Assembly (NCBI GenBank): GCA_963727525.1
Contig: CAVSGO010000006.1
Span: forward strand, 146,828 to 210,827
Reading direction: 5' to 3'
From: an uncultured bacterium
Lineage (GTDB): Bacteria > Krumholzibacteriota > Krumholzibacteriia > LZORAL124-64-63
Length of the DNA: 64,000 nucleotides
Translations under genes and position numbers: made by a program
The notes under the pieces: generated by a model
The model's input: the letters and a program-made list of their open reading frames with translations, nothing else
What the model was told of the DNA's origin: nothing
The model's database searches: none
Shown: positions 4,024-61,608 of the stretch, piece after piece
Numbering within the stretch: position 1 is the first letter of the stretch
Layout of the letters: every line of letters begins with the position of its first letter

Positions 4024-4050
4024 GATGGGCGCGGTGGCGCCGACTTGTGG

Positions 4051-4098
4051 GGCTTCCCGGGGCGAACGTGGAAATCGGCGTCTTGGGAAGCCTCTTTT
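4051..4098 (+). terminator. Probable intrinsic terminator after the tricorn gene
   Basis: GGCTTCCC (4051-4058) pairs with GGGAAGCC (4085-4092), extendable by G-U pairs, followed by TCTTTT. Confidence 0.5.
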
Positions 4099-4249
4099 CG
4101 TCGGTATTGTGTTGCAACTGCAACGCTGTCGTCACAACGCAACTTTGCAAATGCAGCCATTGGGGACGGTCATGTCTCGAACCAACGACCCAGGAACCTG
4201 AGCGTTCGTCCGTCGAGGACCGGTGACTATTTTCAGCGCCACCGGAGCA

Positions 4250-14818: not shown

Positions 14819-15003
14819 GCCGCCCGGGAGGGCTGGCGGACGATTTCGTCCTGGACGGCGGCTCGATCGAGGCACTGATTTCCCAGGAGATTGCTACGGT
14901 TGACCTGTAGATGGGAACTCATCGACAGGTGAACAGCTTTCCGGCTGGACCCGATGGGCCGACTCTTGTTTATATTGTTGCGGCTCCAACCCCGCGAGGA
15001 AAT

Positions 15004-18000
15004 GTGAAAAAGATCTTCCAGAATCGTGTTCTCGCCGCCCTTTCGTCGCTCCGACTGGCGAGCGTCCTCCTGCTGATCTTCGCCGTCTCCATCGGCTCGG
15101 CCACGTTTCTCGAGGCGCGATGGGGGAGGACCGGGGCTTACGCCCTGGTTTACGGCGCTCGCTGGTTCGAGATCGTGCTCGGTCTCCTCACGCTGAACCT
15201 GCTCCTGTCCCTCCTACGCCACTTCCCTTACCGGGCTCGGCACACCGGGTTCTTTCTGTTGCACCTGAGCATGATCATCATTCTCGTGTCGGCCGGCCTC
15301 ACGCGGTACTTCGGCTACGAGGGCACGATGCACATCCGAGAAGGCGACAGTACCGACTTCCTCTTTTCCAGCGAGACCTATGTGAAGGCTTCGTGGCAGG
15401 GCGACACCAAGGCTTTCCGCGTGCGCCTCTACAAGCCCGGCCCGCAGCACGTGGAGCACAAGGTCGATTTCGCCGGCCGTACCTGGACGCTCGGCGTGAG
15501 CGAGTACTTCCCGCACTACGAGGAGCAGTGGGTGCCCGCGCCCGGCGGTGTGGCGGCGCTCAGTTTCGGAGTGCGCGGCGGCGAGGGGCTGCAGATGAAG
15601 ACCCTGCTCGAGGGCGAGCAGCAAGAGGTGGGCACCATCCCGCTGCGCTTCGTGACCGGGCCGCTGAGCGAGCAGGCACCAACGTCCACGTACGGCGACG
15701 TCCGAGTGCACGTGGGTGGCGAGTCATGCACGTTCGCGGTGCAGCCGAAGGCGGGACCTCTCGGCACCTGCGGCGGCTACACGTTTGCCCAGGCCGAGTT
15801 CCATCCCGACTACAAGGTGGGTGTCACCGATGACGACCCCGACGGCCCCATGCTCAACCCCATGGTCCGGCTCAGCGTCACGACGCCCGACGGTACGAAG
15901 GGTGAGCGTCTGCTCTTCTCGATGCATCCCGACTTCGCCATGACCCACTCGGGTCAGGACGACCAGTTCGCCAAGCTCGACCTGCTCTACAGCGTGAACG
16001 CGTCGGTGAACGTGGCGCGCGGCGACGGCGGCCTGGTGATGCGCGCGCCCTTCCCGGTCACCATGACCGACATGACGGGCGAGGTGGATCCGGCCGACTA
16101 CCCGGCCGGCGCGATCATCCCGCTCCACGAGAGCCGCCTCTACGCGAACGACGCCAGCGGCTTCAAGTTCGTTCCCTCGGACATCGAACTCTCGGTGGTG
16201 CAGCAGCCGGCGGCCAGCGACAACCCCAACGCGCCCGCGGCGGCGCGCGTGTCCATCGCCTCGGGCAACGACCGCGCTGACGCGCTGGTCGTGAAGGACG
16301 GTCAGCCGGTGACGGTGGATGTCGGCGGCCAGTCGATCGCCCTCGACTATGGAGCTCTCATCATGCCCCTGACCTACAGCCTCACGCTGGAGGATTTTGT
16401 CTTGAAGACCTATCCAGGCAGCGACAACCCGGCTAGCTACGAGAGCTTCCTCAAGCTGAACGACCCGGCCAACGGCGTCGTGGATCGGCCGGTGCACATC
16501 TACATGAACCATCCGCTCAATTACGCGGGCAGCAAGCACTTCCAGTCGAGCTACGACCAGGATCGCCACGGCACGATTCTTTCCGTGAATCACGATCCGG
16601 GCAAGTGGCCCACCTACCTCGGCTACGCCATGCTCACGCTGGGCTTCCTGCTCATCCTGTTGCGCGACACGATCTGGGGCCGCGTGGACAGCAAGGGCCA
16701 ACCCGAAGCGCCGGTGGCCCCGTCGAAGCCGCGGCGTCAGGCCATACACGTCGGCATGGCCCTGCTGATCGCGCTGCCGCTACTCGCCACCGGCGGCGTG
16801 GCCCGCGCGCAGGACGCGCAAGAGCAGGGTGGTCATGTGGTGCTGAGCGACGTGGCACGACAGGAAGCGCAGCAGCTCATCGTGCAGGACTTCCAGGGAC
16901 GCATGAAGCCCCTGGACACCCTCGCACGCGAGATGGCGATGAAGGTGACCAAGAGCACCCATTTCGAGGGCCGTGACCCCATGGACATGCTGCTCAGCTT
17001 CGCCGTGCAGCCGTCGTACTGGTGGACGCGCCCGGTCATCGCCGTGCGCAACCCCGGTGTGAAGAAGATCCTGGGCGTGGATGCGGCGGTGAAATACGTG
17101 TCGGCCTCGAGCCTCTTCGACGCCAACGGCACCTATATCCTGCAGCAGCAAGTGGAGGACGCGCACCGTGCTCCGGCGCGCGAGCGCACCAAGACGCAGC
17201 AGAAGCTCATCACCTTCGACGAGCGTCTGCACATGCTCTACCTCTCGCTCCAGGGCGAGACGCTGCGTCTGTATCCGGTGCCCGGCGACCCCAAGCACAC
17301 GTGGCTCGGCATCTCCGACGTGGCCGACAAGCTCACCCCGGAACAGAAGACCCAGTACGACGACGCCTTCGCCGCGCTCTTTGGCGGCATGGAGGATGGC
17401 GACCAGGCGAAGATCGTCGAGGGCATCCGCAAAACCGCGGCCATTCAGAAGCAGTATGGCGCCGACGTGCTGCCCAGCAAGCTGGCGGTGAACTCGGAAC
17501 TGCGGCTCAACAAGCTGCAGCCGTTCGTGTGGGCGACGGTGCCGTACCTGGTCGGCTTCGCGATCCTCATCATCGTGTATTTCGTAGGTCTCATGAAGTA
17601 CGGCGTGGCCCAGTGGTCGCTGAAGAACCCGTTCTACCTCATCGGTATGCTCTGCTTCATGGGCGGCCTGGCCTTGCACGCATACGGCTTCGTGCTCCGC
17701 TGGATCGCGTCGGGCCGCGCACCACTGAGCAACGGCCACGAGTCGCTGGTGTTCATCGCCCTGGCCGTGGGCATCGCCGGCCTCATCTTCGAGCTGGTGA
17801 GCCGCTCGGCCGCCGCCAGCGCCCTGAGCTCGCTGCTCACGGCCGTGGTGCTGGGCATCTCGATGATGGGCACCTTCGATCCGGCCATCGGCCCGCTGGT
17901 GCCGGTGCTCGCCTCGTACTGGCTGAACATCCACGTGACCATCATCACCGCGAGCTATGGCTTCCTCGGTCTCTCGGCCTTCCTGGGCGGCCTTACCCTG

Positions 18001-18480
18001 GTGCTGTTCATGGTAGAGGCCGGGGCGAAGCGTGACTTCACGATCCCCATCGCCCGCCTCGATCGCCTGAACGTGGCCGTCATGACCACCGGCCTCGGCA
18101 TGCTGGCCATCGGCACCTACCTCGGCGGCGTGTGGGCCAACGAGTCGTGGGGCCGTTACTGGGGCTGGGACTCCAAGGAGACCTGGGCGCTCGTGTCGGT
18201 GCTGGTGTACGCCTTCGTCCTGCACTTCCGCTGGATCCCCTCCACGCGCAACCCCTTCGTGCAGGCCGCCGGCAGCTTCGCCGCCATCTCGAGCATCGTG
18301 ATGACGTATTTCGGCGTGAACTACTTCCTGTCCGGACTGCACAGCTATGCCGCCGGCGACGCCGCCAAGGTACCCGCCTGGGTACACATCGGCTTCGCCA
18401 TCATGCTGGTGACGATCCTGGTCGGCTACTTCGCCTGGCGCGCGCGTCCGGCGGGACCGAACCGAATCGCGGGGGCGTAG
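15004..18480 (+). CDS. ccsBA: System II cytochrome c biogenesis fusion CcsB(ResB)-CcsA
   Basis: GAGGA then GTG15004; ResB-like N-terminus (LLHLSM His); LKTYPGSDNPASYES; WWD motif WANESWGRYWGWDSKETW; LNIHV and GLHSYA His. Confidence 0.93.
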   Translation: MKKIFQNRVLAALSSLRLASVLLLIFAVSIGSATFLEARWGRTGAYALVYGARWFEIVLGLLTLNLLLSLLRHFPYRARHTGFFLLHLSMIIILVSAGLTRYFGYEGTMHIREGDSTDFLFSSETYVKASWQGDTKAFRVRLYKPGPQHVEHKVDFAGRTWTLGVSEYFPHYEEQWVPAPGGVAALSFGVRGGEGLQMKTLLEGEQQEVGTIPLRFVTGPLSEQAPTSTYGDVRVHVGGESCTFAVQPKAGPLGTCGGYTFAQAEFHPDYKVGVTDDDPDGPMLNPMVRLSVTTPDGTKGERLLFSMHPDFAMTHSGQDDQFAKLDLLYSVNASVNVARGDGGLVMRAPFPVTMTDMTGEVDPADYPAGAIIPLHESRLYANDASGFKFVPSDIELSVVQQPAASDNPNAPAAARVSIASGNDRADALVVKDGQPVTVDVGGQSIALDYGALIMPLTYSLTLEDFVLKTYPGSDNPASYESFLKLNDPANGVVDRPVHIYMNHPLNYAGSKHFQSSYDQDRHGTILSVNHDPGKWPTYLGYAMLTLGFLLILLRDTIWGRVDSKGQPEAPVAPSKPRRQAIHVGMALLIALPLLATGGVARAQDAQEQGGHVVLSDVARQEAQQLIVQDFQGRMKPLDTLAREMAMKVTKSTHFEGRDPMDMLLSFAVQPSYWWTRPVIAVRNPGVKKILGVDAAVKYVSASSLFDANGTYILQQQVEDAHRAPARERTKTQQKLITFDERLHMLYLSLQGETLRLYPVPGDPKHTWLGISDVADKLTPEQKTQYDDAFAALFGGMEDGDQAKIVEGIRKTAAIQKQYGADVLPSKLAVNSELRLNKLQPFVWATVPYLVGFAILIIVYFVGLMKYGVAQWSLKNPFYLIGMLCFMGGLALHAYGFVLRWIASGRAPLSNGHESLVFIALAVGIAGLIFELVSRSAAASALSSLLTAVVLGISMMGTFDPAIGPLVPVLASYWLNIHVTIITASYGFLGLSAFLGGLTLVLFMVEAGAKRDFTIPIARLDRLNVAVMTTGLGMLAIGTYLGGVWANESWGRYWGWDSKETWALVSVLVYAFVLHFRWIPSTRNPFVQAAGSFAAISSIVMTYFGVNYFLSGLHSYAAGDAAKVPAWVHIGFAIMLVTILVGYFAWRARPAGPNRIAGA

Positions 18481-25874: not shown

Positions 25875-28800
25875 TCACCGCGCGAGCAGCATCTTGCCGG
25901 CCGTGATGCCGTCGTCCGTCACCAGCCGGACCAGGTACACGCCCGACGCTACGGTGCGTCCGCGGGCATCCGTTCCGTCCCAGATCACCTCGTGCGATCC
26001 CGCGTCGAGCGTGCCCGCGACCAGCCGGCGCACACGTTTGCCGTCGGGGGCGAACACGTCCAGTGTCGCCGCCATGGCGCGTGGGAGCGAGAAGGCGATG
26101 GATGTCATCGGATTGAACGGATTCGGGTGGTTGCCGCGCAGCTTGACGGCGCCGGGTGTGTCGCCGTCGACCGCCGTGTCTTCCGCCACCTGCAGCGTCA
26201 CCGGGATACGGGTCTCCCCGCCCGCGCTCGTGGTCACCCGCAGCAACGCATCCTGCGTGCCGCTGGAGACGTCCGCCGCGTGCAGCGTGACGACGATCGT
26301 GGCCTCGGCGCCTCCGGGTACCACGCCGTTCGCGAGGCCGGGCTGCACCCAGCTCACGTCGCGGCCCACAGCGAACACGCTGCTCGAGTCCGACAGGGCG
26401 GTGTCCTGCGCGTCGCTCACGCGGATGCGCGCGTATGGTCCGGGGTTGCCCGCCACGAGCCATGTCCACGCACCGGCTGCCGCATCGACATCCGTGGCCA
26501 GGCCACTCCAGGGGCCGGCCTCGTCGCGCTGAATGGCCACGTCCACGAGACCCGACCCATTGCCCGCCGTGAAGGTGATCGGCAGCTCCTGACCGATCAC
26601 CGCCACCGTGCCCGCCACGGGGGTGTGGAGATCGAGGTAGGGCTGGTCGCTCGTGAGCGTGATCGTTCCCACCACCTGATCCGGCTGACCGTAGAGGCCG
26701 ATATCCTCGAGGGAGTAGGCGAAGGTCACCTCGCCCGCGGCATCGGGTGCGAAGCTGACGTTCAGCGTGCCTGTGGCCGTGTTGCCCAGCGGGATGAAGG
26801 CGGAACCTCCGTCGGCCAACCCGTCCCAGACGGTGACCACCTCGTCGCCCGCCGGACCGAGCCAGGTGAGGGTGTCGCCGGTCGCCACCCCGAGATCGGT
26901 GGCGTCGTTGAGCGTGACGCCCGACGGACACTGCAAGGCCACGATCGTCAACAGCGGGAAGATGCCCTCGCCGTCCGCATACACGCTCATCGCGATATCG
27001 ACGGTGGTGCCCGGTTCGAAGCTGGAGGTATCGAAGGTGAGGGTGGATCCGTCGAGGTTCGGAGGCGCCGGCGTGGCGGCGGCCTTGTGCGCGATCTCGG
27101 GCGGCAGCACCGCCGGATCCACCACGGCGACCGCGTAGCCGAGTTGTGATCCCGCCGCACCCGTGTTGGCCACGTGCAACGTGCGCGTGACGTGCCCGCC
27201 GGGCGGTACCGTGACCACGATCGACGCAGGCGTGACCTCGGCCTGAGGCAGGGCGACCGCACCGATGGGTTCGAAGCGGATGGCGCGCCCCGCCTCGAGC
27301 GGCGTACCGCCGGCGGCGTACTGATTCCAGTAAGTGTAGAGCAGGCCGCCGGTGCGGTCGTGGTTCTGGATGCCGACCGTCGCGTAGCCGTCGCGCGTGT
27401 CGGTGTTGTGCACCTCGGCGTATTGCATGATGATGGCGCCGTCGCCCGTCGCCGTGGGATGCCAGGCCGGATCGAGCAGGATGACTTCGAAGTTCTCCCG
27501 CGCGCGCGAGAAGTTGTTGAGCAGGTTGTACCACTGCGCGATGAAGCGATGCTGCGCCGCGTCGTACCAGGTGTACACGTCGGCGTTGCCGATCTGGTAC
27601 AGGTCGTCCCAGAAGACGGCGATCAGGCTGCCGGGACTTCCGGCCGCAGGCAGCGTGACGTTGCGATACTGCACGAGCGGCGTCTCGCCCAGAGCGAGCC
27701 AGCCGTTGGAACAGATCGACACGCGGTCGAACGCGACACCGTAGTAGCGAAACGGGAACGGCAGGTCGATGGTCCGCGTCTGGTCCTGCTCGAAACCCTG
27801 GTCGTCGAGGTCGAGCGACACGCCGGGGCCTCCGCTCACCGGATCGAGAGCCACCCAATCGTAGACCGGCGCGTGGCCACTGGCGACGTCGGTATCGTCG
27901 AAGGCGTAGTAGCCGCCGGCCCCAGGTCCCGTGGGTGCGTCGGTGGCGGCGGTGCCCACGGTCACGGGCACATCGCGGACCGACTGGCCGCCCGCCCCAT
28001 CCGCGATCGTCAGCCGCAACACAGCGAGGTGACCGGGAAAGCAACCGGGCGCGATCGTGAGGCCGAAGGGGTCGAGCGTGTTCGCCGCCGCATCCCCGCT
28101 GCCGATCGCGCCGAAGCTCCCGGTGGTGTCGGTGATCTCGAGCCACGGGCTGTCCGTCGTCAACGTGGCGGCGGCATCGGGAGCGGCGACGCTGCCGTCG
28201 TTGGCGAGCGTGATGACGAGCGTGCCGGTCTGTCCGGGCTCGAACGTCTCGCCCTCGCTCCAGGTCGGATCGGACACGGAGAAGGACGGGCCGTGCACCG
28301 TCGCCTGGACGACATCGGTGAAGGTAAGATCGGTGGCCGTCAGAGGCAGCGGCCACCTCACGACCGCACCATCGGGCGCGCCGGCATCCACCGCGATCGT
28401 GACCGGCGCCGCCGCCCACACCGTGTCGCCGGGCGCGATATCGCCGAAGCTCAGGACACCGGACACCACCCGACCCCAGGGATCGCCGCCGATGAGCGTG
28501 CCGGCCACGGCGGAAGCCGTCGCGGTGCCGAGGTTGGTGATGGCCAGGGAGAGCAGCGCCGTCTCGCCGGGATCGAGCATCCCGTCGCCGTTGCCGGCGC
28601 TGTCGTCGATGGTCATGGCGGCAACCTCGCAGGCGACAGCGACCTCGCCGACGGTGAGGTCGCCGCGATAGGGGATCATCCCCAGCGCCGTCGCCGTCAC
28701 GGTGCACGTGCCGGCGGAGAGAGGCGGTGTGACGAGGGTCGTGGCACCGAATTCGCTGGTGTGGCCGACGACCTGCAGTTCACCCTCGCGGTACAGGCAT

Positions 28801-30566
28801 ACGCGCGCTCCCTGCACGGGAGCGCCGTCGGATACGACGCTGATCGTCACGCTGCCCGCGCCCACCGCGACCTGGGCGGGATAGTAGGCCGCGATCGCAC
28901 TCGGGACGCCGAGCCAGATCGGCGTGGCCGGATCGCCCATGAGGTTGTTCCAGACGGCCCAGATCTCGGCTTTGTCGGGCTCGGCGAGGAAGTAATTGTC
29001 GTAGAGCTCCAGCTTGCCGAGGGTATGCGCCACGCCGATATGCGGGTCGCGCTCGAGTAGTCCGTTCCAGGTGCCCTGGTAGTAGCAGTTGTTGTACCGG
29101 GTATGAGTGCCGACGGTGGCCGTACCGATCGCCGCCACGGCGCCGCCGCCTGACGCCCGCAGGAATGCTTCCGAGTGGCATACATAGGAGCCGTCGAACG
29201 ATCCCGTGTCGCAGGTCGGTATGATCGCCACCGGCAGGCGGCCACCATTCGTCAGCACGCCGATCAGGGCCGGAGAGATGCCGCTCATCTCCAGGTAGCC
29301 GCGGTAGCCGAAGGCGCTCTTGCCCAAGTTCAGCGACGTGAGGAACTGCGTGGAGAAGTCGCCGCCCCAGATCGTGTCGACGGCGCTGTAGCCGCTGGCG
29401 AGGAGCCGGCCCTTCAACCACTGGTTCACGGTGATCGTGGTGATGCCCGAAGAACTCGGGTCGCCGATGAGACACCCCTCGGTGAACCAGTTCGTGTCGT
29501 CCCGGGGAGGTGCCGTCTCGTAGTTCAGGACCTTGTTCACGATGACGCCGGCCGTCTCGAGGTCGGAGAAGCTGAGGCGCCCGATATGCACGTCGGAGAG
29601 GATGTCGTCGCCGTCGAGCAGCGTGTAATAGTGGTCGCCCTCGCCTCCGTACTGGGAGAGGCCCTCGTGCCACGTGGGCACCCCCCAGGGCCCCCACGTG
29701 TCCCCGGCGAGCACCACGTACGTCAGTGGAGGGATGCCGGGATCGTCATACAGCGCCTGGAGCTGGGCCTTCACGTCGGTGTTGGGACCGGGTCCATGGA
29801 TGATTTCCACGTGGTAGCCCTCTTGCCGACGCCAGTCGATGAGTGGCTGGAGGGGCGTCAATGCCGTCTCGTAGCCGTACACGAGGGCCCACGTGCCCGG
29901 GCGGTCGTCCAGGGCGGCTCCGCGACGGCTCGCGGGTGCGGCCTTGCCGTCGGGCGCGTCGAACCGTAGCTCGATCACCACGCGGCTCGCCGCCGCGATA
30001 CGTCCATTCCCAGGATCATATGCCACGGGGATCACGTTCACCGCGACCACGGCCTGTCCTGCCATGATCTGCGCCGCACCCACCAGCACCTGCGCGCCGT
30101 CGACCCGCCCGGCGTGGATCACCGCGGCGGGCGCGGTCACGCGCACCCAGCCGGCACGCGCATATGCGCCGGGATCGATCACCGGCGCCTTCGCACCGGC
30201 CGGCTGCACCGGAAGCAAGCACCCGCCTGGGAGGGCGTCCATCGTCGCATCCACCACGCGGGCGCCCACGCGGGCGCCGGCCGGAACCTCCACGAGGTGC
30301 CCCAGCACCGGCAGTCCCGGCGCGCCCGGTTCGCCGAGGAGCCCAGCGCCGTCGATCGTCAGCGCGGTATAGGTCGTGCCGTCCACGTCGACGATGGTGC
30401 GGTTCGGAGCCGGGATGGCGATCTCGATCCGCGTCGACACGGCGTCGCGCGCGATCACGCGCCAGCGGGCGCGTTCCGACGCACCGGCGGCGGGCAATGC
30501 CGCCAGGACCAGGCTCGTAGTGGTCAACATGCATGCGGCAGCGAGGCCGATACGACGATGGTGCAT
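25875..30566 (-). CDS. C25 (gingipain-like) peptidase with propeptide, Ig-like domains and FlgD-Ig C-terminal domain
   Basis: Signal peptide; GEPGAPGLPV propeptide; WRRQEGY, YVVLAGD, DHYYTLLDGDD..DVHIGRL, PTCDTGSF, NLMGDPA; C-terminus NHPNPFNPMT...WDGTDARGRTVASGVYL...GKMLLAR. Confidence 0.92.
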   Translation of the reverse strand: MHHRRIGLAAACMLTTTSLVLAALPAAGASERARWRVIARDAVSTRIEIAIPAPNRTIVDVDGTTYTALTIDGAGLLGEPGAPGLPVLGHLVEVPAGARVGARVVDATMDALPGGCLLPVQPAGAKAPVIDPGAYARAGWVRVTAPAAVIHAGRVDGAQVLVGAAQIMAGQAVVAVNVIPVAYDPGNGRIAAASRVVIELRFDAPDGKAAPASRRGAALDDRPGTWALVYGYETALTPLQPLIDWRRQEGYHVEIIHGPGPNTDVKAQLQALYDDPGIPPLTYVVLAGDTWGPWGVPTWHEGLSQYGGEGDHYYTLLDGDDILSDVHIGRLSFSDLETAGVIVNKVLNYETAPPRDDTNWFTEGCLIGDPSSSGITTITVNQWLKGRLLASGYSAVDTIWGGDFSTQFLTSLNLGKSAFGYRGYLEMSGISPALIGVLTNGGRLPVAIIPTCDTGSFDGSYVCHSEAFLRASGGGAVAAIGTATVGTHTRYNNCYYQGTWNGLLERDPHIGVAHTLGKLELYDNYFLAEPDKAEIWAVWNNLMGDPATPIWLGVPSAIAAYYPAQVAVGAGSVTISVVSDGAPVQGARVCLYREGELQVVGHTSEFGATTLVTPPLSAGTCTVTATALGMIPYRGDLTVGEVAVACEVAAMTIDDSAGNGDGMLDPGETALLSLAITNLGTATASAVAGTLIGGDPWGRVVSGVLSFGDIAPGDTVWAAAPVTIAVDAGAPDGAVVRWPLPLTATDLTFTDVVQATVHGPSFSVSDPTWSEGETFEPGQTGTLVITLANDGSVAAPDAAATLTTDSPWLEITDTTGSFGAIGSGDAAANTLDPFGLTIAPGCFPGHLAVLRLTIADGAGGQSVRDVPVTVGTAATDAPTGPGAGGYYAFDDTDVASGHAPVYDWVALDPVSGGPGVSLDLDDQGFEQDQTRTIDLPFPFRYYGVAFDRVSICSNGWLALGETPLVQYRNVTLPAAGSPGSLIAVFWDDLYQIGNADVYTWYDAAQHRFIAQWYNLLNNFSRARENFEVILLDPAWHPTATGDGAIIMQYAEVHNTDTRDGYATVGIQNHDRTGGLLYTYWNQYAAGGTPLEAGRAIRFEPIGAVALPQAEVTPASIVVTVPPGGHVTRTLHVANTGAAGSQLGYAVAVVDPAVLPPEIAHKAAATPAPPNLDGSTLTFDTSSFEPGTTVDIAMSVYADGEGIFPLLTIVALQCPSGVTLNDATDLGVATGDTLTWLGPAGDEVVTVWDGLADGGSAFIPLGNTATGTLNVSFAPDAAGEVTFAYSLEDIGLYGQPDQVVGTITLTSDQPYLDLHTPVAGTVAVIGQELPITFTAGNGSGLVDVAIQRDEAGPWSGLATDVDAAAGAWTWLVAGNPGPYARIRVSDAQDTALSDSSSVFAVGRDVSWVQPGLANGVVPGGAEATIVVTLHAADVSSGTQDALLRVTTSAGGETRIPVTLQVAEDTAVDGDTPGAVKLRGNHPNPFNPMTSIAFSLPRAMAATLDVFAPDGKRVRRLVAGTLDAGSHEVIWDGTDARGRTVASGVYLVRLVTDDGITAGKMLLAR

Positions 30567-34902: not shown

Positions 34903-34988
34903 CCCATCTCCGATCGAGGGGGTGGCGATACGTCGAGATGAGAGGGCAAAATATCATACCAGATTGATCGCGGAAAGCGAATCCCGTC

Positions 34989-35645
34989 CTACGTCGCCGC
35001 GGCGGCATCCTGCTCGGAGAAGTAGCTGGCGAACTGGTCGGCCAGCGCGAGGCGGGCGGCCGCCAGGGCCGTCGCGGCCGTTTCGAATTCGCTTCGACGC
35101 AGCGACTCCGCGAGGCCATGCCAGGTCTCGAGCCAGCCACCGGCGTCCCAGCCGCGATCAACGGCCGCGCTGATGTAGCGCAAAGTGAGCCGGTTCTGGC
35201 GCAGGGCGAGGGTGCGCAGGGTGAGGTTGCGGCAGCCGTCGAGCGTGATGCGCGTGAGCAGGTAGAACGTTTCCACGAGACCATCGCGGTCGGTGCGGCC
35301 GAGGCGGGCGCGGGAGAGCAGATTCTGCAGTTCCATCACCGCGCGGCCGTCGAGCGGGTCGCGATCGCGCAGTGCGGCGGGCTCGATGACGGCGAGCACG
35401 CGGCAGAGTTCGTTGATCTCGCGCGCGGTGAGCGGCGGTACCTGGAAACCTCGGCCCATGAACGACAGCAACACGCCCTCGGCCTGCAGGCCGAGCATGG
35501 CCTCGCGCAGGGGGGTGCGGCTGATACCCAGGTCCTGCGACACGCGCGACTCATTCAGGTGCATGCCCGCCGGCAGGCGACCGTCGACGATGCGCGCGAG
35601 GATCTCGGCGCCGACGTCCGTTCGCAGGGGTTTGCGCTCAAACAT
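34989..35645 (-). CDS. GntR family transcriptional regulator (FCD-type)
   Basis: LPAGMHLNESRVSQDLGISRTPLREAM..L..EG. Confidence 0.9.
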   Translation of the reverse strand: MFERKPLRTDVGAEILARIVDGRLPAGMHLNESRVSQDLGISRTPLREAMLGLQAEGVLLSFMGRGFQVPPLTAREINELCRVLAVIEPAALRDRDPLDGRAVMELQNLLSRARLGRTDRDGLVETFYLLTRITLDGCRNLTLRTLALRQNRLTLRYISAAVDRGWDAGGWLETWHGLAESLRRSEFETAATALAAARLALADQFASYFSEQDAAAAT

Positions 35646-35678
35646 GCCACGTCCTTGCCGGGGCGTCGGCGACGCGCC

Positions 35679-35987
35679 TCAGACCCGCACGACCGAGTTC
35701 TCGGCACCCTCGAAGCCACTGGGGCAGTACCGATCAGCACCGTCGTCGTTCTGCCAGGTCTTGCCGTCGAGGAGGTAGCGGTACTGGTACTCGCGTCCCA
35801 CCTCGAGGTCGAGCGTCACCTTGAATTCGCCGCTCTTCAGCTTCTCCAGCGGTGTGGCGCGGGGGTTCCAGTCGTTGAACTCGCCGACGAGGCTGACCTT
35901 CCCGGCCCCGAGGGCCAGATCCTTGGGCAGCCGGAACGTCACCTTGCACACCGGCTTGCTCTTGAGAGGTTTCTTGATGACGCTCAT
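35679..35987 (-). CDS. Isoamylase early-set (CBM48-like) domain protein
   Basis: MSVIKKPLKSKPVCKVTF, LVGEFNDW, YQYRYLLDGKTWQND; GGAGG RBS. Confidence 0.9.
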   Translation of the reverse strand: MSVIKKPLKSKPVCKVTFRLPKDLALGAGKVSLVGEFNDWNPRATPLEKLKSGEFKVTLDLEVGREYQYRYLLDGKTWQNDDGADRYCPSGFEGAENSVVRV

Positions 35988-36074
35988 GGACGAATCCTCC
36001 GTATAAAGACCCTCGATCTCATCTTTGGGCGCAAGATAGAGCCGATCCGGTCCAGGCGTCAAATCACGTCTCCG

Positions 36075-37391
36075 TCAATTCGCCGTGCCCAGTTCCAGCA
36101 TGTACCCCGCCACCGCCTTGAGCTTCTCGTCGCCGAGCTTGAAGGCGGGCATCTGCGGAAAGCCCGCCCGCTTCTTGCCGGGGCTGCTCGCCCAGGTCAC
36201 GATGCCGTCGGGATTGTCGGCATAGATCTTCGCAATCTCGCGCAGCGACGGGCCCACGAGCACACGGTCGGTCGTATGGCATGCCGCGCAGGTGCCCTGG
36301 AAGATCTTCTGGCCCAGGGGCACCTTCACGAGCGTCTGGCCCGTGGCTTCGCGCCACTGCGCGGCCGCCACTTGCCAGCCCAAGTCGCGCGTGTGGGCCG
36401 CGACGAGACGACGATGCTCGTTCAGCGCGTTCTCCCGGTAGACGTGGCGGCCGTAGCCCATGGCGAAGGCCGTGAGCGTGAGGAGTGTGAAGACGAGCAC
36501 GCCGCGCGGCAGGGCTCGCGCGGCAGGCCGCGTCACCTCCCGCCACATCGTCACCGTGGCCACGATGGCCAGCGTCACGCCCACGCTGATGATCCCGATG
36601 AGGTACCAGCTCACGCCCTGGGCCGGCAGCGTCAACAACAACAACGGCCCGAACACCACCTGCATTGCCGTGGCGCCCAGGGTGATGCCATAGAAGAGGC
36701 GGCGCAGCGCGCGGCGATCGAGCTCCTGGAAGCGCGTCTCCACGTGGTAGCTGTCGCGCAGGAAGAACACGAGCAGAAAGAGTCCGGCGATCGCCACGCT
36801 CGCCGTGAGGAAGTGGAAGTATCGTGGCCACACGTTGGGCAGGGCCAGCGCGGAGACGAAGCCGTGGACCTCGGACCAGCGGCCAGGGAACAGCATCAGG
36901 TTGATGTTGGCCAGGAAGATGAGCGGGATGGCCAGGAACATCGCCGCGCCGGCCATGCCTATCGCGATGTGCAGGCCCTTGGCGTCGGCGAGCCTGTCCC
37001 ATGTGTACTTGTGGATGTACGTCACCAGGAAGGCCACCGTCACGAGCGGGATGATCGCGATCCACGCCGCCCCGGTGAGCGCGTTGGCCGAATAGAAGTA
37101 CACCGTGTACACCAGGTTGAGGGCCAGTAGCGGCCCCACGCCCAGCACCACGGCCAGGCTCTTGTTCACGGTCACGGTGCCGGCGATCTCCCTCGCGAGC
37201 ACGTCGAAATCACGACGCCGGCGGCCGAGCAGCTCGAACACCACCGTGAGCAGCGAGCCGCCCACCATGAGGTTCACGAAGAGGATGTGCCACAGGAAGA
37301 GCAGCACGAGCAGCGTGTTGACGACCACGGAGTCCGCCGGCAGCGGCAGCGGAATGTCGCGCGGCAGGGGCCAGTTGGCGATCGAGTCCAT
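36075..37391 (-). CDS. CydA-like membrane protein fused to C-terminal cytochrome c (subunit B)
   Basis: WHILFVNLMVGG and PRYFHFLTAS (His positions comparable to CydA heme ligands); CAACH, VGPSL, QMPAF. Confidence 0.75.
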   Translation of the reverse strand: MDSIANWPLPRDIPLPLPADSVVVNTLLVLLFLWHILFVNLMVGGSLLTVVFELLGRRRRDFDVLAREIAGTVTVNKSLAVVLGVGPLLALNLVYTVYFYSANALTGAAWIAIIPLVTVAFLVTYIHKYTWDRLADAKGLHIAIGMAGAAMFLAIPLIFLANINLMLFPGRWSEVHGFVSALALPNVWPRYFHFLTASVAIAGLFLLVFFLRDSYHVETRFQELDRRALRRLFYGITLGATAMQVVFGPLLLLTLPAQGVSWYLIGIISVGVTLAIVATVTMWREVTRPAARALPRGVLVFTLLTLTAFAMGYGRHVYRENALNEHRRLVAAHTRDLGWQVAAAQWREATGQTLVKVPLGQKIFQGTCAACHTTDRVLVGPSLREIAKIYADNPDGIVTWASSPGKKRAGFPQMPAFKLGDEKLKAVAGYMLELGTAN

Positions 37392-37409
37392 CGTGCGGTT
37401 CTCCTGTGA

Positions 37410-38786
37410 TCAGCGTCCGAAGCCGGCCGTCTGCACCCCGTCCAGGGGAGCGGGGTCGGCACGCAGCGAGATGATGTAGTCGGCGAGCGCGGACTTCTCC
37501 TCCGCGGTGCCCGGCACCGGCGGCATGAAGGGGCGCGCGTTCTGGATGCCATCGAGATAGGTGACCAGGGCGGCGTGGTCCCAGCCTTGCCAGCCGTACA
37601 TCGCGCCGAACTTCTGCACGATACTGTTCACGCCGTGAGTGGTGTGGCAGCGGCTGCACGCGAGGCGGAACATCTCGCGGCCGGCCATGAGTGTATTGTC
37701 GTCGGTGACGTCGTGCACCACGGCGTAGGAGGCGTGGGCCAGCAGGCCGTCTTCCGCGTAGAGCGGGTAGTCCTGGGCGCGCAGCCCGTTGCTGTACATG
37801 TAGGCCTGGACGACCTCGGGCTTGCGGATGAACTCGCGCACGCGCTCGAAGTAGCTGAGCTGCCACACCGCGAAAAGCACCGGCACGATCATCGCCACAG
37901 CAGGCAGGCGGCGTGGCGCCAGCAAACCCCACACGGCGACCAGCACGACCACGCCCACCGAGACCGCGATGACGACGCGTAGCGGATCGTAGAGCTGCTG
38001 GAAGTTCAACGTCGTAAGGGCCACGGGGAGGTTGGCGTGCATGCGTTCGGGGATGACCTTCCAGTACGACCACGCGCCCACCAGCCACGCCGGGCTGAAG
38101 GCCAGGGCCCAACCGCTGATCGCGCGCACGGCGCGACCGCGGAACTCACTGCCGCGCTCGGTGAAGAGCACCGTCAGGAAGAGGGCGAACATGGCGGCCG
38201 TCACCAGAGCCAGTGGTGTGCGGAAGAAGAGCTGCGGTAGGTAGACGGGGTTGAGCGCCGCGGTCCAGAAGCCTGGATTCACCGTCCACACGCCGGTGTC
38301 CATCTGGAAGCTGAGGATGGCCACGATCACGGCCATGGTCAGCCAGGAGGCGACGCTCAGCGCCACGCCCAGCCCGAGGTGCGCCTTCTTGTGCGCCTTC
38401 GCCCACATCGTCTTCCACGACAGCATGTAGATCAGGATGAGGGCCACCTCGGTCACGAAGACCGTCCACTCGAAGAACCACGCCCAGAAAAAGACGCGGA
38501 TCAGGGAGCCTATGGCGTTGGGGTTCACGAGGCTGGTCGACAGCCAGATGCCCACGCCCGTGAGCGCGCCCAGGCTGGTGGTGACGATGAACGCCACGAA
38601 CAGGATGCGATACGCCAGGCGGTCCCACTGCTCGTCGCGAGTGCGGATGCCCAGCCACTCCAGATACGTCACCAGCGGCGCCAGCCCCACGGCCAGCATG
38701 TGGTTGATGATCACGTGGAGGGAGGCGATCACCGCGATCAGCAGGCGGTTGCCGAAGAAGTCGAGGTGAAAGACCGGGAAATCCAT
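37410..38786 (-). CDS. Cytochrome bd subunit I (CydA)-like protein fused to cytochrome c (subunit A)
   Basis: LHVIINH, GALTGVGIW, WFFEWTVFVTE, REFIRKP (GRQPW-like); CSRCH, FMPP; GAGGA then ATG38786. Confidence 0.8.
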   Translation of the reverse strand: MDFPVFHLDFFGNRLLIAVIASLHVIINHMLAVGLAPLVTYLEWLGIRTRDEQWDRLAYRILFVAFIVTTSLGALTGVGIWLSTSLVNPNAIGSLIRVFFWAWFFEWTVFVTEVALILIYMLSWKTMWAKAHKKAHLGLGVALSVASWLTMAVIVAILSFQMDTGVWTVNPGFWTAALNPVYLPQLFFRTPLALVTAAMFALFLTVLFTERGSEFRGRAVRAISGWALAFSPAWLVGAWSYWKVIPERMHANLPVALTTLNFQQLYDPLRVVIAVSVGVVVLVAVWGLLAPRRLPAVAMIVPVLFAVWQLSYFERVREFIRKPEVVQAYMYSNGLRAQDYPLYAEDGLLAHASYAVVHDVTDDNTLMAGREMFRLACSRCHTTHGVNSIVQKFGAMYGWQGWDHAALVTYLDGIQNARPFMPPVPGTAEEKSALADYIISLRADPAPLDGVQTAGFGR

Positions 38787-39090
38787 GACGGGCATCCTCT
38801 TCGGTTGCATGCGCGGGCCAGGTGCGCGCGGCGGGGGCCTTCACGCCGCGTTCCTCGCATATCCGCGTGGCCCACGCCGGAAACCCCACCGGAATCGTGT
38901 GAGTTAAGTCTTTCTCGAAGAAGAAGTTACGCGACGCGGCATGGTAATGGCAAGGCGGGACACACGCCAGCACGCGATAGCCTGGAACACACCGGGGTGG
39001 CGTCCGTAAGGACCGGGTTCGATCTTGGGTACGACGCGTAGCGCCGACCGTCCCGGCCGGCGCGCCTTCCCACGATGGAGGTCGTTTTCG

Positions 39091-40278
39091 ATGCGCAAGT
39101 TCTCCCTCACGTTCCTCGTCGGCCTGGTCGCGGTCCTGGCACTCGCGGCCGGAACGGCGCACGCCCTGCCGGCGGCGCCGATCATCGCCCAGAGCTGGGA
39201 CGAGGCGGTGGCGTTGTCTCAGCAGCACGGTTCGCCGATCGTCATCGACTTCTATACCGACTGGTGACCGAGCTGCAAGGTCTTCGCCCGTGAGGTGGAG
39301 GAGAATCAGCAGCTTCGCGGCTATCTGGCCGGGATCGTGCTCTTCAAGAACAACTGCGAGAAGGGTGCGGGCATCGATGTCGCCAAGAAATACGAAGTGC
39401 ACGTATACCCGACCTTCGCCATGGTCGACGCCAGCGGCGAGGTGACCGATCGCTGGGCCGGCTACCAGGGCGCCGACGGCTTCATCGCCACCGTGGACGC
39501 GGCCCAGGCCGACCCCCGGACGATCAAGGAGAAGGTGGCGGCGTTCGACGAGGAACCGACGGTGGCGCTGTCGCGCTCGCTGGGACAGTACAGCGAGGCG
39601 GTGGGTGCGAACACCGACGCCATCAAGTACTACCGCAAGGCGATGGTCCTTGACTCAACGCTCGCCAAGGAGATGCGCAGCCAGGTCTTCATGGCCGCGT
39701 TCTATGGGTTGCGTTCGGGTGAGGTGACGGGCGATCAGCTCATGGCCGTGGGCCACGAGATCATGGATGCGCCCGGGAGCGATGCGAACGACTATCTCAT
39801 GGTCGCCAGTATCGCCAAGCGCGTGGCGTCGGCCAACGACTACGTGCCGATCCTGCAGAAGGCCCTGACCGCCACGGCGAATTCCGACGATCCGGAGATG
39901 GCGGAGTACCGGCAGGATCTCCTCGTCGACGAGGCTCTCCTGATCAAGAACGACAAGGACGAGGCCCTGCGTCTCAAGCGGGATACGCTCACCGACACGT
40001 GGCGCAACGATCCCGATGAGATCAACAGCTTCGCCTGGTGGTGCTACGAGAACGACCTCAACCTGACCGAGGCCTACGACCTCGCCATGCGCGGCGCCGA
40101 TCTGGCCGCCGACGACGGCACCCGGGCCAACATCCTCGACACGGCGGCCTACATCGCCTTCAAGAAGGGCGACCAGGCCAAGGCTATCGAGCTGGAGACA
40201 CGCGCCGTGAAGTTGGCTCCCGATCGCCAGGGTCTGCAGCGCACGCTGGAGAAGTTCAAGAGCGGGGAGGCCGGCTGA
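39091..40278 (+). CDS. Secreted thioredoxin-like/TPR protein, probable selenoprotein (TGA at codon 59)
   Basis: ORF-track pieces 39025..39267 and 39295..40278 are in the same frame. Read-through gives IVIDFYTDW-(TGA)-PSCK, then VHVYPTFAMVD (cis-Pro loop). GGAGG, signal peptide and TPR-like C-terminus (NSFAW, NILDTAA) present. Confidence 0.85.
39282..39295 (+). promoter_or_regulatory. Candidate bacterial SECIS hairpin
   Basis: CTTC-GCCCGT-GAGG begins 15 nt after the TGA, with a G first in the loop. The stem is short and was not folded computationally. Confidence 0.35.
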
Positions 40279-40303
40279 GACTTCCCGAGACGCCCGTATC
40301 GAT

Positions 40304-47169: not shown

Positions 47170-49734
47170 ATGTCTTCGCGCTTTGTCGCCATTTGCCTCG
47201 CTGTCACCCTTGGTTTACCCATTGTTTCCCTGGCGGCCGACGACGCGGTTGTCGCGCTCGACGCGCTCGTCATCGGGCCGTTCCCGGCGGCGCCGGCTCT
47301 GGTGGCCACGCCCCACGTGCCGGGCGATCAGGAACTCGTGCCCGAGATCGATCCCACGGGGTGGATGCCGGAGGAAGGCGACAAGGTGCCGGCGGCGCCG
47401 GGCCACGAGCTGACGTGGCGCAAGGTGGGCGCAGCTGATGGTGGCTTCGCGCTTCCCGATTCGGGCGTGTACTGGTTAGCGGCACGGCTGCAGAGCGATC
47501 GCTGGTCGGAGGTGACGCTGAAGGCCGACGGTGGTTGCGCCATCTACGCCGACGGTACCAAGGTCGCGGCCAACGTGCCGGGAGAACCGGGCGATGACGT
47601 GGAGGGCGACGTCGGTGCCGGCACCGGGGCGCGCTTCGTGTTCGTGCGGGCGTCGGCTGGCAAGGATGGCGGCCACGTGACCCTGAGTGCCACCGGCGAC
47701 GCGACGCTGAGCTGGACGCTCGACGCGCAGCTCGGCCTCAGCGGGATCGACCGGGCGCGCCGGATTGCGATGATCGGCAACCTGGCCGTGTCGCCCAAGG
47801 GAGCGCTCGTGGCCAGGCGGCTGTCGCGTCGGAAGCCGACCGGCGAGGGCTGGCAGCGCGACGTGTCGGTCTTCGCCAGCGACGGCGGCCTGGTGGCCAG
47901 CGATCTCGGCGGAGCGGGTGCGCGGCCCGAGGCCTTCTCGCCCGACGGGCGCCAGCTCCTGTTGCGCCGCAGCGACGGCGGCAACACCGATCTCGTGCTC
48001 TGGACGGCGCCGCTCGGACCGGTGCGCACCGTCGTCGAGGACGAACCCGGCCTGGGTATCGTGCGTTTCTCACCGGACGGGCACTGGCTGCTTATCGCGT
48101 CGACGCGCGGTTTCGACGCGAAGTCCGTCGCCGAGGATCAGGCGCATCGCTGGGACACGCTGGGTCAACGTCTCACTGACTGGGACCCGCTCACGCATCT
48201 GCACCTCGTGAACGTGGCCACAGGCGCGCGCCGGGTGCTCACCCAGCCCGGCGACTGGACGCTCGACGGCGCGGCGTGGCTGCCCGACGGCAAGGCGATC
48301 ATCTACGGGCGCACGCAGCCGCAACCGGAGCGGCCGTGGTTCACGTCGGAGATTCACCGCATCGACCTCGCCACCGGCGACGACACCGTCGTCGCCACCT
48401 TCACCGGTGGCTGGGAGGTGCGGCCGCAGGCGTTCGCGCCGCATCCCGACGGCCGGCGCGTGGCCTTCCTCGGTCCGCCCGAGGCGGTGGGCGATGGGCA
48501 CACCGAGCACAACGTCTACGACAAGCAGGTGTGGATGCTCGACCTTGCGACCGGCAAGACCGAGCGCGCCACGTACGGGTTGCGTGATACCTTCGCCGGT
48601 GGCGGCGGTCTGCCCGCGTGGGAGCCGCGGGGCCGCTGGCTCGTGGTCCCGGCCACGGCCGGTTCACGGGACGTGCTCGTCCAGCTCGAACCCGACGGCG
48701 CGCATTGGAAAGCAACAGAGGTGGCAACCGAGGGCGTGACCGGCGAGGGATGGGCCCTCAGCCCCGACGCCGTGGCCGTGGCGTACACCGCGAGCGGCCT
48801 CGCGCAACCGCCGTCCCTCTGCCTGCAGACGCTCGGCGGCCGTGCGCGGGTGATCGAGGCGCCCAATGCCGCCCTGACGCAACGCTGGCGCCTGGCCGCG
48901 ACGTCCGACGCGTCGTTCACCGGGCCAGGCGGCGAGACCATCGAGGCCTGGTGGTACCGCCCGAGCACGGCAGCGGCCGGCGTCTTCGACCAGCCGGCGC
49001 AGGGGAACGCCGGCAGCGTGCCGCTCATCGTCTATTACTACGGCGGTGCTTCACCCACCATCCGCGGTTTCAATCCCACGCACCAGTTCTGGGCGGCCAA
49101 CGGCTACGCGGTGCTCGTGATCAACCCGCGCGGCGCGTTCGGCTACGGAGACGCATTCGCCGACGCGCACGCCGGCGATTGGGGTACCGAGGCCGGCGCC
49201 GACATCGTGGCCGGTACCGAGGCTCTGCTCGCGCGCTTCCCGCAACTCGACCGCAAGGCCGTGGGCTGCTACGGCGGCAGCTACGGCGGCTTCATGACGA
49301 TGTACCTGGTGAGCCACAGCGACCTCTTCGCTGCAGCCGTCGCCATGTACGGCATCGCCGACCTCGTCACCTACTGGGGGCAGGGCGCCTGGGGCATCAC
49401 CTACGGTGACATGGCGCTCGGCGGCCGCACGCCGTGGGGCGATGCCTCGTACTTCACGCAGCACTCGCCGGTGTACGCGGCCGACCGCATCCACACGCCG
49501 CTGCTGATGCTGCACGGCGCGAGCGATACGAACGTGACTCCGGGCAACTCCGAGGAGATGTTCGCCGCTCTGAAGGTGCTCGGCCGCGACGTGGACATGG
49601 TGACGTTCCCCGGCGAGAACCATGGCATCGCCGGTACGTGGGCCGACTATACGGGCCATCGCACGATGATGCTCGAGTTCTTCGACCGCTGGCTGAAGCA
49701 GCAGCCGCAGGCGTGGGAACATCGCTGGAAGTGA
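47170..49734 (+). CDS. S9 prolyl oligopeptidase family, secreted
   Basis: Signal peptide; propeller repeats; YGGSYGG (Ser), HGASDTNV (Asp), GENHGI (His). Confidence 0.93.
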   Translation: MSSRFVAICLAVTLGLPIVSLAADDAVVALDALVIGPFPAAPALVATPHVPGDQELVPEIDPTGWMPEEGDKVPAAPGHELTWRKVGAADGGFALPDSGVYWLAARLQSDRWSEVTLKADGGCAIYADGTKVAANVPGEPGDDVEGDVGAGTGARFVFVRASAGKDGGHVTLSATGDATLSWTLDAQLGLSGIDRARRIAMIGNLAVSPKGALVARRLSRRKPTGEGWQRDVSVFASDGGLVASDLGGAGARPEAFSPDGRQLLLRRSDGGNTDLVLWTAPLGPVRTVVEDEPGLGIVRFSPDGHWLLIASTRGFDAKSVAEDQAHRWDTLGQRLTDWDPLTHLHLVNVATGARRVLTQPGDWTLDGAAWLPDGKAIIYGRTQPQPERPWFTSEIHRIDLATGDDTVVATFTGGWEVRPQAFAPHPDGRRVAFLGPPEAVGDGHTEHNVYDKQVWMLDLATGKTERATYGLRDTFAGGGGLPAWEPRGRWLVVPATAGSRDVLVQLEPDGAHWKATEVATEGVTGEGWALSPDAVAVAYTASGLAQPPSLCLQTLGGRARVIEAPNAALTQRWRLAATSDASFTGPGGETIEAWWYRPSTAAAGVFDQPAQGNAGSVPLIVYYYGGASPTIRGFNPTHQFWAANGYAVLVINPRGAFGYGDAFADAHAGDWGTEAGADIVAGTEALLARFPQLDRKAVGCYGGSYGGFMTMYLVSHSDLFAAAVAMYGIADLVTYWGQGAWGITYGDMALGGRTPWGDASYFTQHSPVYAADRIHTPLLMLHGASDTNVTPGNSEEMFAALKVLGRDVDMVTFPGENHGIAGTWADYTGHRTMMLEFFDRWLKQQPQAWEHRWK

Positions 49735-56207: not shown

Positions 56208-56945
56208 ATGGCCATCGATCTCGAAACCAGCGTCGGCGACCTTGCCGGCAGCCTCCCAGCCCTGATTCCCGTGCTGGAATCACTCGGTATCGACTACTGC
56301 TGTGGCGGCCAGCGATCGCTGGTCGAGGCGTGCCGGTCCGCCAACCGCGATCCCCAGACAGTGCTGGCGGCGCTGGTCCGGGCCGAGCAGCCATCATCGG
56401 CGTCGTCCGTGGCTGCCACCGACTGGCGACAGGCGAGCCTCAACGCGCTCATCGATCACATCGTCGCTCGCCACCATGAATATCTGCGCCAATCGCTGCC
56501 TCGTATCGGCGATCTCATGCAGACCGTCTTGAAAGCCCATGGCGCCAACCACCCGGATCTGGCCGGGGTGTCCGAGCAATTCCAGGCGTTGCGCGCCGAA
56601 CTTGAGAACCATCTGCTCAAGGAGGAGGGCATCCTCTTCCCCATGATCCAGTCGATGGAGGTGACACGGAGTCTGGACGACGTCCATTGCGGCTCCGTTG
56701 CCAACCCCATCACGGTCATGGAGCACGAACACGACAACGCCGGAAACGCCCTGCGCAATCTGCGAGCCTGGACCAACGAGTACCAGCCGCCCGCCGACGC
56801 TTGCCCCACCTATCGTGCGTTGCTCACGGACCTGGCCAACCTCGAGCAAGACCTCCACGAGCATATCCACATGGAGAACAATCTTCTGCACCCCCGCGCC
56901 GTGGCCCTGGAAGCCCGGTTGCGCAACACTGCCGCAGGCGATTGA
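56208..56945 (+). CDS. ric: Iron-sulfur cluster repair di-iron protein
   Basis: GIDYCCGG, HHEYLR, HLLKEE..LFP, EHEH, HIHMENN. Confidence 0.95.
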   Translation: MAIDLETSVGDLAGSLPALIPVLESLGIDYCCGGQRSLVEACRSANRDPQTVLAALVRAEQPSSASSVAATDWRQASLNALIDHIVARHHEYLRQSLPRIGDLMQTVLKAHGANHPDLAGVSEQFQALRAELENHLLKEEGILFPMIQSMEVTRSLDDVHCGSVANPITVMEHEHDNAGNALRNLRAWTNEYQPPADACPTYRALLTDLANLEQDLHEHIHMENNLLHPRAVALEARLRNTAAGD

Positions 56946-56956
56946 AAGGTCGAACC

Positions 56957-61560: not shown

Positions 61561-61608
61561 CAGTCTCCCGAAGTGCCCCACCAGGCCACGCAAGCAAAGG
61601 AGATAGTA

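Follow-up and report, generated by a model that had tools for sequence, protein, structure and literature searches.

Two adjacent CydA-like subunits, each fused to cytochrome c, in a Krumholzibacteriota-like genome: an OR-C1-type pair of the bd superfamily

What might a bacterium do with two neighboring CydA-like membrane proteins, each carrying a cytochrome c domain, and with no CydB to accompany them? The question is raised by a stretch of 64,000 nucleotides (nt) from an uncultured bacterium of the Krumholzibacteriota lineage (GenBank assembly GCA_963727525.1, contig CAVSGO010000006.1, positions 146,828 to 210,827), referred to as the window and numbered from its first letter. A prediction made from the letters of the window alone (the original prediction) had drawn attention to two tandem genes 18 bp apart, here called A and B, each with a CydA-like transmembrane (TM) core and one CxxCH motif. 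A heterodimeric reductase fed by cytochrome c instead of quinol was suggested, with O2 or NO as the substrate. Here we examined the pair by sequence, structure prediction and comparative genomics. It is an ordinary member of a known, widespread branch of the bd superfamily which was described from genomes in 2021. Its most likely function, which we favor by inference and with some reserve, is that of a heterodimeric cytochrome c:O2 oxidoreductase.

Both genes are on the minus strand. Gene A (37410..38786) codes for an OR-C1a-type CydA-like subunit of 458 amino acids and gene B (36075..37391) for an OR-C1b-type subunit of 438 amino acids (P0121). In each product eight TM helices are followed by a class-I cytochrome c domain at the C-terminus. 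The longest open reading frame (ORF) of A covers 37410..38810; the ATG at 38786 was taken as the start since all homologues begin with MDFP, and the resulting protein is 100% identical to the database protein P0001. The 18-bp spacer (37392..37409, minus strand) contains, as read from the sequence, an AGGAG Shine-Dalgarno site 8 nt before the start of B. A and B are a tightly coupled operon. At third codon positions the G+C content of both genes is 0.92, similar to that of the other real genes in the window, the overall GC content of which is 67%. A single CxxCH is found in each protein: CSRCH in A (Cys377, Cys380, His381; 37644..37658, minus strand; PF13442, E 1.7e-6) and CAACH in B (Cys368, Cys371, His372; 36276..36290, minus strand; PF00034, E 1e-7). 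Probable distal ligands of these haems c are Met421 in A (nt 37524-37526) and Met414 in B (nt 36150-36152). Pfam and NCBIfam scans of A and B returned the cytochrome c domains only; no bd model, including PF01654 and PF02322, came up at E<=1. Because these libraries see nothing but the cytochrome c domain, public records name both proteins 'cytochrome c'.

Is the membrane core then truly that of CydA? For A (residues 1-345; 37752..38786, minus strand) sequence and structure gave the same answer. A phmmer search of PDB sequences matched residues 21-171 to the Geobacillus thermodenitrificans CydA (5doq_A) with E 3.2e-8, and a family profile built from 29 members extended the match to residues 13-231 (E 3.8e-12). 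The AlphaFold2 (AF2) model of A (predicted local distance difference test score, pLDDT, 78.6) shows eight long helices and, after them, a small domain which is also helical. When it was compared with the PDB by Foldseek, the top ten matches were all CydA chains (probability 1.0, template modelling scores 0.50-0.59), and CydB chains came next. The structural homology to CydA on which the original prediction depended is present, and it includes TM1 to TM4, the oxygen-reduction module of the superfamily.

With B, the direct approach failed: neither the B sequence nor a B-family profile matched CydA among the PDB sequences. Therefore, the homology of B was shown via A and by fold. A hhalign comparison of A and B at full length gave a probability of 99.2 (E 2e-19). 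After removal of the cytochrome c domains the probability was 96.4 (E 1.4e-9) over 262 columns which cover TM1 to TM8. The AF2 model of B (pLDDT 83.3) has eight TM helices, and its top six PDB matches in Foldseek were CydA chains. The alignment of the B family with the single E. coli CydA sequence had an E of 0.12 and is non-significant alone; its register agrees with the other evidence. A and B are both CydA paralogues. The tandem arrangement of two CydA-like cores with one CxxCH each was thus borne out by the ORFs, by homology and by fold.

The orientation in the membrane was read from the charges of the loops. The odd loops contain 3, 4, 3 and 2 Lys+Arg in A and 4, 3, 4 and 3 in B, the N-terminus and the even loops 0, 0, 0 and 2 in A and 1, 0, 1 and 0 in B. 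By the positive-inside rule this pattern therefore indicates an N-out/C-out topology with both haem c domains in the periplasm. The loop between TM6 and TM7, which is the site of the Q-loop in CydA, comprises about 15 residues in A and 7 in B according to the models. Judged by these lengths A and B are both devoid of a quinol-binding Q-loop, as had been surmised.

Next, the residues which carry the cofactors in CydA were located. The references were CydA of G. thermodenitrificans and the E. coli CydA encoded in NC_000913, and conservation was determined in 85 A sequences (48-100% identical to A) and 74 B sequences, one sequence per species. In A, His24 (nt 38715-38717) aligns with CydA His19/His21, Glu106 (nt 38469-38471) with Glu99/101, Glu113 (nt 38448-38450) with Glu107/108 and His136 (nt 38379-38381) with His126; six residues separate the two glutamates. 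His24, His29, Glu106, Glu113, His136, Ser147 and Arg189 are present in 85/85 sequences, and so is the haem c set C377, C380, H381 and M421. The first His and the Glu pair, which A had been said to retain, are therefore 100% conserved. The His of haem b558 (the His186 equivalent) was searched for in TM5 of A, and no His was found anywhere in this helix. The residue at its position depends on the alignment, Phe188 in the hidden Markov model alignment or Thr190 when A is aligned by hhalign with E. coli CydA. Phe188-Arg189 (nt 38220-38225) occupy the b558 His region of CydA, and Phe188 is conserved to 98%. The loss of the His, which had been noticed earlier, hence stands; that Arg takes its place is within alignment error, as Phe188 and Thr190 flank Arg189. 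A presumably has no counterparts of Met393 and Glu445, a reading based solely on the lack of any alignment past TM5.

Several invariant features specific to OR-C1a are without counterpart in CydA. These are an N-terminal MDFPxFHLD motif (residues 2-9, nt ~38763-38783), His29 (nt 38700-38702), which is located five residues past the His19 equivalent, Arg189 (nt 38220-38222) and the sequence FERxREFxRKP at the periplasmic end of TM8 (A residues 313-323, nt 37818-37850).

In B the picture is reversed. His35 (nt 37287-37289), His141 (nt 36969-36971) and His193 (nt 36813-36815) align with His19, His126 and His186, i.e. both His positions credited to B (His35 and His193) are there. The positions facing Glu106 and Glu113 of A are non-acidic; the Glu pair is lost. 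His35, His141 and Met166 are found in 74/74 sequences, His193 and Met311 in 71/74 (96%) and His316 in 88%. Of the haem c set C368, H372 and M414 are 100% conserved, and C371 occurs in 73/74, the remaining one being an alignment gap. Met311 (nt 36459-36461) and His316 (nt 36444-36446) are candidates for a second ligand. The substitutions His193Glu and Met311Tyr occur in the same three genomes only (L063, L069 and L083; Parapedobacter, Sphingobacterium and Sediminibacterium). This co-substitution hints that both residues serve one cofactor. The losses in the two subunits are complementary: A is without the b558 His, B without the Glu pair.

This set of features has a name. The bd superfamily has been divided into the branches qOR, OR-C and OR-N (Murali, Gennis and Hemp, 2021, bioRxiv 10.1101/2021.01.16.426971). 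In this scheme OR-C1a and OR-C1b are two CydA paralogues encoded side by side, both of which have eight TM helices and haem c motifs at the C-terminus and are without a quinol site. OR-C1a keeps His19, Glu99 and Glu107, and OR-C1b lacks the Glu pair; in the OR-C1a reference the His186 position is taken by F183, the two Glu are separated by six residues, and Met393 and Glu445 are both missing. A heterodimer that takes its electrons from cytochrome c and not from quinol was proposed (Murali et al., 2021). The residue pattern of A is exactly that of the published OR-C1a reference. B is a CydA paralogue with eight TM helices, stands beside an OR-C1a gene and has no proton-channel glutamates, which are the marks of OR-C1b. 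A direct connection to the published list was found in Myroides albus BIT-d1 (L075). Its ORF 2199..3644 is 50% identical to A over residues 1-455 and is Ga0440848_080_2199_3644, an OR-C1a entry in Supplementary Table 7 (Murali et al., 2021). Directly downstream, at 3652..5010, is a B homologue.

The family is large. A profile scan with one genome per species retrieved at least 588 relatives of A, and the B core matches 929 clusters at 50% identity. The closest relatives of A are 72% identical (a Krumholzibacteriota metagenome-assembled genome). One-haem OR-C1b proteins have been listed for Bacteroidota, Verrucomicrobium and Sulfurihydrogenibium, and OR-C1b proteins without haem c for other organisms (Murali et al., 2021). 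Because the one-haem form is already listed there, one haem c per subunit constitutes no new architecture. We are all but certain that the A-B pair belongs to the OR-C1a/OR-C1b family. The assignment to a divergent cytochrome c-fused bd clade, OR-C, was right and can now be narrowed to this subfamily. Two other memberships were discarded. Eight helices, Phe at the His186 position and the fused haem c rule out OR-N for A. Canonical bd (CydAB) is ruled out by the missing Q-loop, by the absence of a His in TM5 of A and by the lack of a PF01654 or PF02322 match.

Do A and B belong together? We collected 89 related loci (85 non-redundant) with flanks of up to 8 kb on each side. B is directly downstream of A on the same strand in 88/89 loci, and the lone exception is a contig end. 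Across the 88 loci the gaps are 15-350 nt, with one of 804 nt. The pair was observed in Krumholzibacteriota, Planctomycetota, Acidobacteriota, Bacteroidota, Verrucomicrobiota, Zixibacteria, Myxococcota and others. Neither a CydB (PF02322) nor a canonical CydA was detected among the scanned coding-like ORFs of the window, in agreement with the earlier statement that a CydB is missing. When the flanking ORFs of the 85 non-redundant loci were clustered no family appeared in more than 13 loci. The most recurrent families were a response regulator (13 loci), SCO1/SenC (9) and AraC (8); no dehydrogenase and no nir, nor or nos family recurs. A larger conserved operon around A-B was considered and dropped, as a conserved partner gene did not emerge from the 85 loci. 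An apparent natural A-B fusion in the representative library (P0358, 807 amino acids) has an Arg-rich low-complexity linker and a haem c domain which is cut short. Most likely it is a frameshift or an assembly artefact, and it was not used as evidence.

How might such a pair work? A and B would assemble into a heterodimer with pseudo-symmetry, and B would fill the position that CydB has in the structure of cytochrome bd. A periplasmic cytochrome c, soluble or tethered and reduced by a bc-type complex or by Alternative Complex III, would reduce the fused haem c domains. From there electrons would pass to a low-spin b-type haem at His193 of B, with Met311 or His316 as the second ligand, and/or directly to one or more high-spin haems bound at His24/Glu106 of A. 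At this site O2 would be reduced to water, with cytoplasmic protons arriving along a path via Glu113 and Glu106. As with canonical cytochrome bd, the proton-motive force would come from charge separation, and no protons would be pumped. Taken as a whole, this explanation, an OR-C1 pair operating by this mechanism, appears reasonably probable to us. Of the cytochrome c-fed heterodimer that had been suggested, homology, eight TM helices, the missing Q-loop, periplasmic haem c and pairing in 88/89 loci are now established; the heterodimer proper and its catalysis are what we infer from them.

Several observations argue for O2 as the substrate. Proton-consuming chemistry is favored over mere electron wiring because the two buried glutamates and the His126 equivalent are absolutely conserved in A. 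The family is present in the cultured Bacteroidota genera Flavobacterium, Myroides, Sphingobacterium, Arcicella and Flectobacillus, which we take to be aerobes, and an O2-linked role is favored for this reason. Further, O2 reduction is favored because the analogous CydAA', a related two-CydA enzyme, was shown to reduce O2 (10.1101/2021.01.16.426971). A cytochrome c-dependent role is supported by a ResB-CcsA protein encoded in the window; this is a 1189-amino acid ORF at 14911..18480 (plus strand) in which ResB-like and CcsA (Cytochrom_C_asm) parts are joined, and its product is a cytochrome c maturation protein of the fused System II type. The A-B pair of two Phycisphaerae genomes stands next to, and divergent from, an Alternative Complex III cluster (L004/L005, 1..5701; L046, 2343..7505) that consists of a multihaem ActA, an ActB of 1022 amino acids with Fe-S domains, an NrfD-type ActC and ActD. 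Such an adjacency is as expected for a cytochrome c-consuming oxidase. Finally, the OR-C1a gene of Desulfovibrio vulgaris, DVU2484, is part of the operon of FDH2, an O2-insensitive formate dehydrogenase, and this we also counted in favor. The context of DVU2484 fits a formate-to-O2 chain, FDH2 being reportedly insensitive to O2, or an electron-transfer anchor equally well.

A number of points weigh against an O2 reductase of this kind. A literature search found no report of any OR-C enzyme that was purified or assayed, and in the papers found from 2024-2026 OR-C is cited solely as a phylogenetic class. The family is also present in strict anaerobes such as Desulfovibrio, where the operon partner is a periplasmic formate dehydrogenase. 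As A apparently is without Met393/Glu445 counterparts and without a b558 site, the haem set may differ from b558/b595/d. The co-substitution of His193 and Met311 in B is probably a single evolutionary event. The bd core of both proteins goes unrecognized by Pfam and NCBIfam. Last, adjacency to Alternative Complex III is rare, with two independent genomes and a fragment in a third.

Accepting the family assignment, one may read the same data in another way. Possibly, although we judge it the less probable view, OR-C1 is a 'split' bd-type enzyme with membrane haems in both subunits, and perhaps no oxidase at all. The low-spin entry haem (His193 with Met311/His316) may have moved to the 'b' subunit, and the proton-fed catalytic site may have been kept in 'a'. 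Each subunit may then have its own haem c entry port, unlike the solved bd oxidases which all have a haem-free CydB. Such an enzyme may be a cytochrome c-to-quinone module or a dehydrogenase anchor, as is hinted by the Desulfovibrio FdhM operon. What the alignments display at this point is a complementary partition of the putative ligands and their strict conservation.

The anchor idea may also be held without a catalytic site. A-B would then be a membrane module for electron transfer: c-type cytochromes or dehydrogenases of the periplasm would deliver electrons to it, and it would hand these on into or through the membrane, e.g. to menaquinone, much like the membrane anchors of periplasmic enzymes. 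The annotation of DVU2484 is CfdD, a subunit of FdhM, the 'membrane-associated' formate dehydrogenase, and its gene is one of five in the fdh2 operon (DVU2485-2481). Desulfovibrio OR-C1a proteins have as many as eight haems c, a feature typical of electron-wire proteins. In addition A is without Q-loop and b558 site, so the canonical path from quinol to O2 is gone. Yet the two buried glutamates and the His126 and His19 equivalents are 100% conserved in A, as expected of a proton-consuming catalytic haem site and not of a wire. There is no recognizable signature of a quinone site and no dehydrogenase that recurs as a neighbor in the 85 loci, and the family is at home in the Bacteroidota genera which we assume to be aerobes. 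On balance we consider a pure electron-transfer module unlikely, although it is the most serious of the rivals.

Could the oxidant be another small molecule of the kind of NO, H2O2 or nitrite? NO binds to canonical cytochrome bd, which also shows peroxidase-like activity on the side, OR-C may contain a set of haems other than the canonical one, and a quinol-type NO reductase (qNor) is encoded in the window. The latter (56687..59245, plus strand; 852 amino acids, NorB cytochrome-c-like domain plus COX1) is indeed about 18 kb away, as had been noted, i.e. 17.9 kb from the start of A. However, it is on the opposite strand and the genes in between are unrelated, so that qNor and the A-B pair are unlinked. 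No qNor homologue was present in the fetched flanks of the 89 loci, none of the nir, nor or nos families is a recurrent neighbor, and the sequence gives no pointer to NO over O2. The proposed connection to NO via qNor was thus not upheld, and a cytochrome c-dependent reductase of such an oxidant seems distinctly improbable. That A and B, being paralogues with a haem c domain of their own, work separately as homodimers or alone and are adjacent by mere tandem duplication is hardly credible, given an order and strand kept in 88/89 loci from many phyla at 44-72% identity, complementary and non-redundant residue losses, an 18-bp coupling that supports co-expression, and solved bd oxidases that are all heterodimers of two related eight- or nine-helix subunits.

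We then looked at the surroundings of the pair in the window. A gene for a CBM48/AMPK-beta-like protein of 102 amino acids (35679..35987, minus strand; Pfam AMPK1_CBM, E 2.4e-7) starts 87 nt downstream of B; the protein is small, cytoplasmic and glycogen-binding-like. It is followed by a gene for a GntR-family regulator (34989..35645, minus strand; Pfam GntR, E 6.7e-13). The order A, B, CBM48, GntR, together with a divergent upstream thioredoxin-TPR gene, is common to the window and to the Krumholzibacteria L002/L003 (L002, 8874..9994). The CBM48 and GntR genes are absent from the other loci with called genes, and CBM48 is not among the recurrent neighbor families. Both are lineage-specific neighbors outside the conserved module; GntR is a possible local regulator. 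The intergenic region upstream of A was aligned in four related genomes and contained no conserved regulatory motif. Rfam gave no match above threshold across 34800-40400.

The gene divergent from A (39091..40278, plus strand) codes for a signal peptide, a thioredoxin fold and a TPR domain. Its sole interruption is a TGA at 39265-39267, exactly at the first Cys of the CxxC (DFYTDW-TGA-PSC). When the TGA is read through, the Pfam Thioredoxin match (E 6e-12) spans the stop. The position of the TGA is shared by the window and three other genomes (L010, L012 and L002/L003/L011), with a protein identity of 54-57% on both sides of it. A fully conserved hairpin, UUCGCC-CGUGA-GGCGAA (~39283-39299), is located 18 nt downstream of the TGA; its folding energy alone is non-significant. 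The product is a candidate for a periplasmic selenocysteine (UxxC) thioredoxin. Gene callers split the gene into two ORFs.

Further away, a gingipain-type Peptidase_C25 of 1563 amino acids with a C-terminal FlgD-Ig domain is encoded at 25875..30566 (minus strand) and a protein of 767 amino acids with Por_Secre_tail, a type IX secretion sorting domain, at 61573..63876 (plus strand). Both fit a Krumholzibacteriota-like host of the FCB group. A tRNA-Ala(CGC) reported by ARAGORN (48400..48492, plus strand, 93 nt) is over-long and lies inside a Peptidase_S9 ORF (47170..49734); it probably is a false positive.

What is the significance of this locus? Few membrane enzymes of the respiratory type are widespread and yet without any biochemical characterization, and OR-C1 is among them. 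If it were a cytochrome c-dependent, copper-free, bd-type O2 reductase, a further class of terminal oxidases would be added which genome-based metabolic reconstructions have missed. These reconstructions overlook OR-C1 because Pfam and NCBI give no other name than 'cytochrome c'. The window presents a clean example of the form with one haem on each subunit. The comparative data yield a candidate haem-ligand map for both subunits which is open to test; the 'b' subunit was untabulated in the original paper. To the published description we thus add an explicit residue map of 'b', in which the His19, His126 and His186 equivalents are kept, the Glu pair is lost and Met311/His316 are candidate ligands. 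Further we add a measure of the strictness of A-B pairing and the link of OR-C1 to the Desulfovibrio FdhM operon.

How does the pair compare with known systems? With canonical CydAB (qOR1-3; structures from E. coli, G. thermodenitrificans and Mycobacterium tuberculosis) A and B share the fold as predicted by the models, and the equivalents of His19, Glu99, Glu107 and His126 in A and of His19, His126 and His186 in B. Unlike CydAB, the window pair has no Q-loop or quinol site, and a second CydA-like subunit replaces CydB. The b558 His and the catalytic-site residues are split between the subunits, Met393/Glu445 apparently are missing and haem c domains are added. CydAA' of Caldivirga maquilingensis (qOR4a/qOR4b) similarly consists of two CydA paralogues without CydB, and its 'b' subunit also is without proton-channel glutamates; however, it is an archaeal quinol oxidase with a Q-loop on 'a' and no haem c. 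The OR-N proteins, the 'bd-like oxidases' of Nitrospira/Nitrospinota, resemble the pair in the absence of a Q-loop, in the pairing of CydA paralogues and in the proposed cytochrome c donor. They differ in having 10-14 TM helices, in a His186 equivalent that is kept in 'a' and in that no haem c is fused to the CydA-like subunit. The D. vulgaris FdhM/Cfd operon (DVU2481-2485) contains an OR-C1a member, DVU2484 (CfdD). In that organism the pair shares a transcript with the gene of a periplasmic W/Se formate dehydrogenase, whereas neither the window nor the 85 loci have a linked dehydrogenase. With OR-C1a/OR-C1b, lastly, the window pair shares every defining feature, and there is no essential difference. 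In a Krumholzibacteriota-like host it represents the sub-type in which both subunits carry a single haem c; in the Desulfovibrio type 'a' may have as many as eight and 'b' has none.

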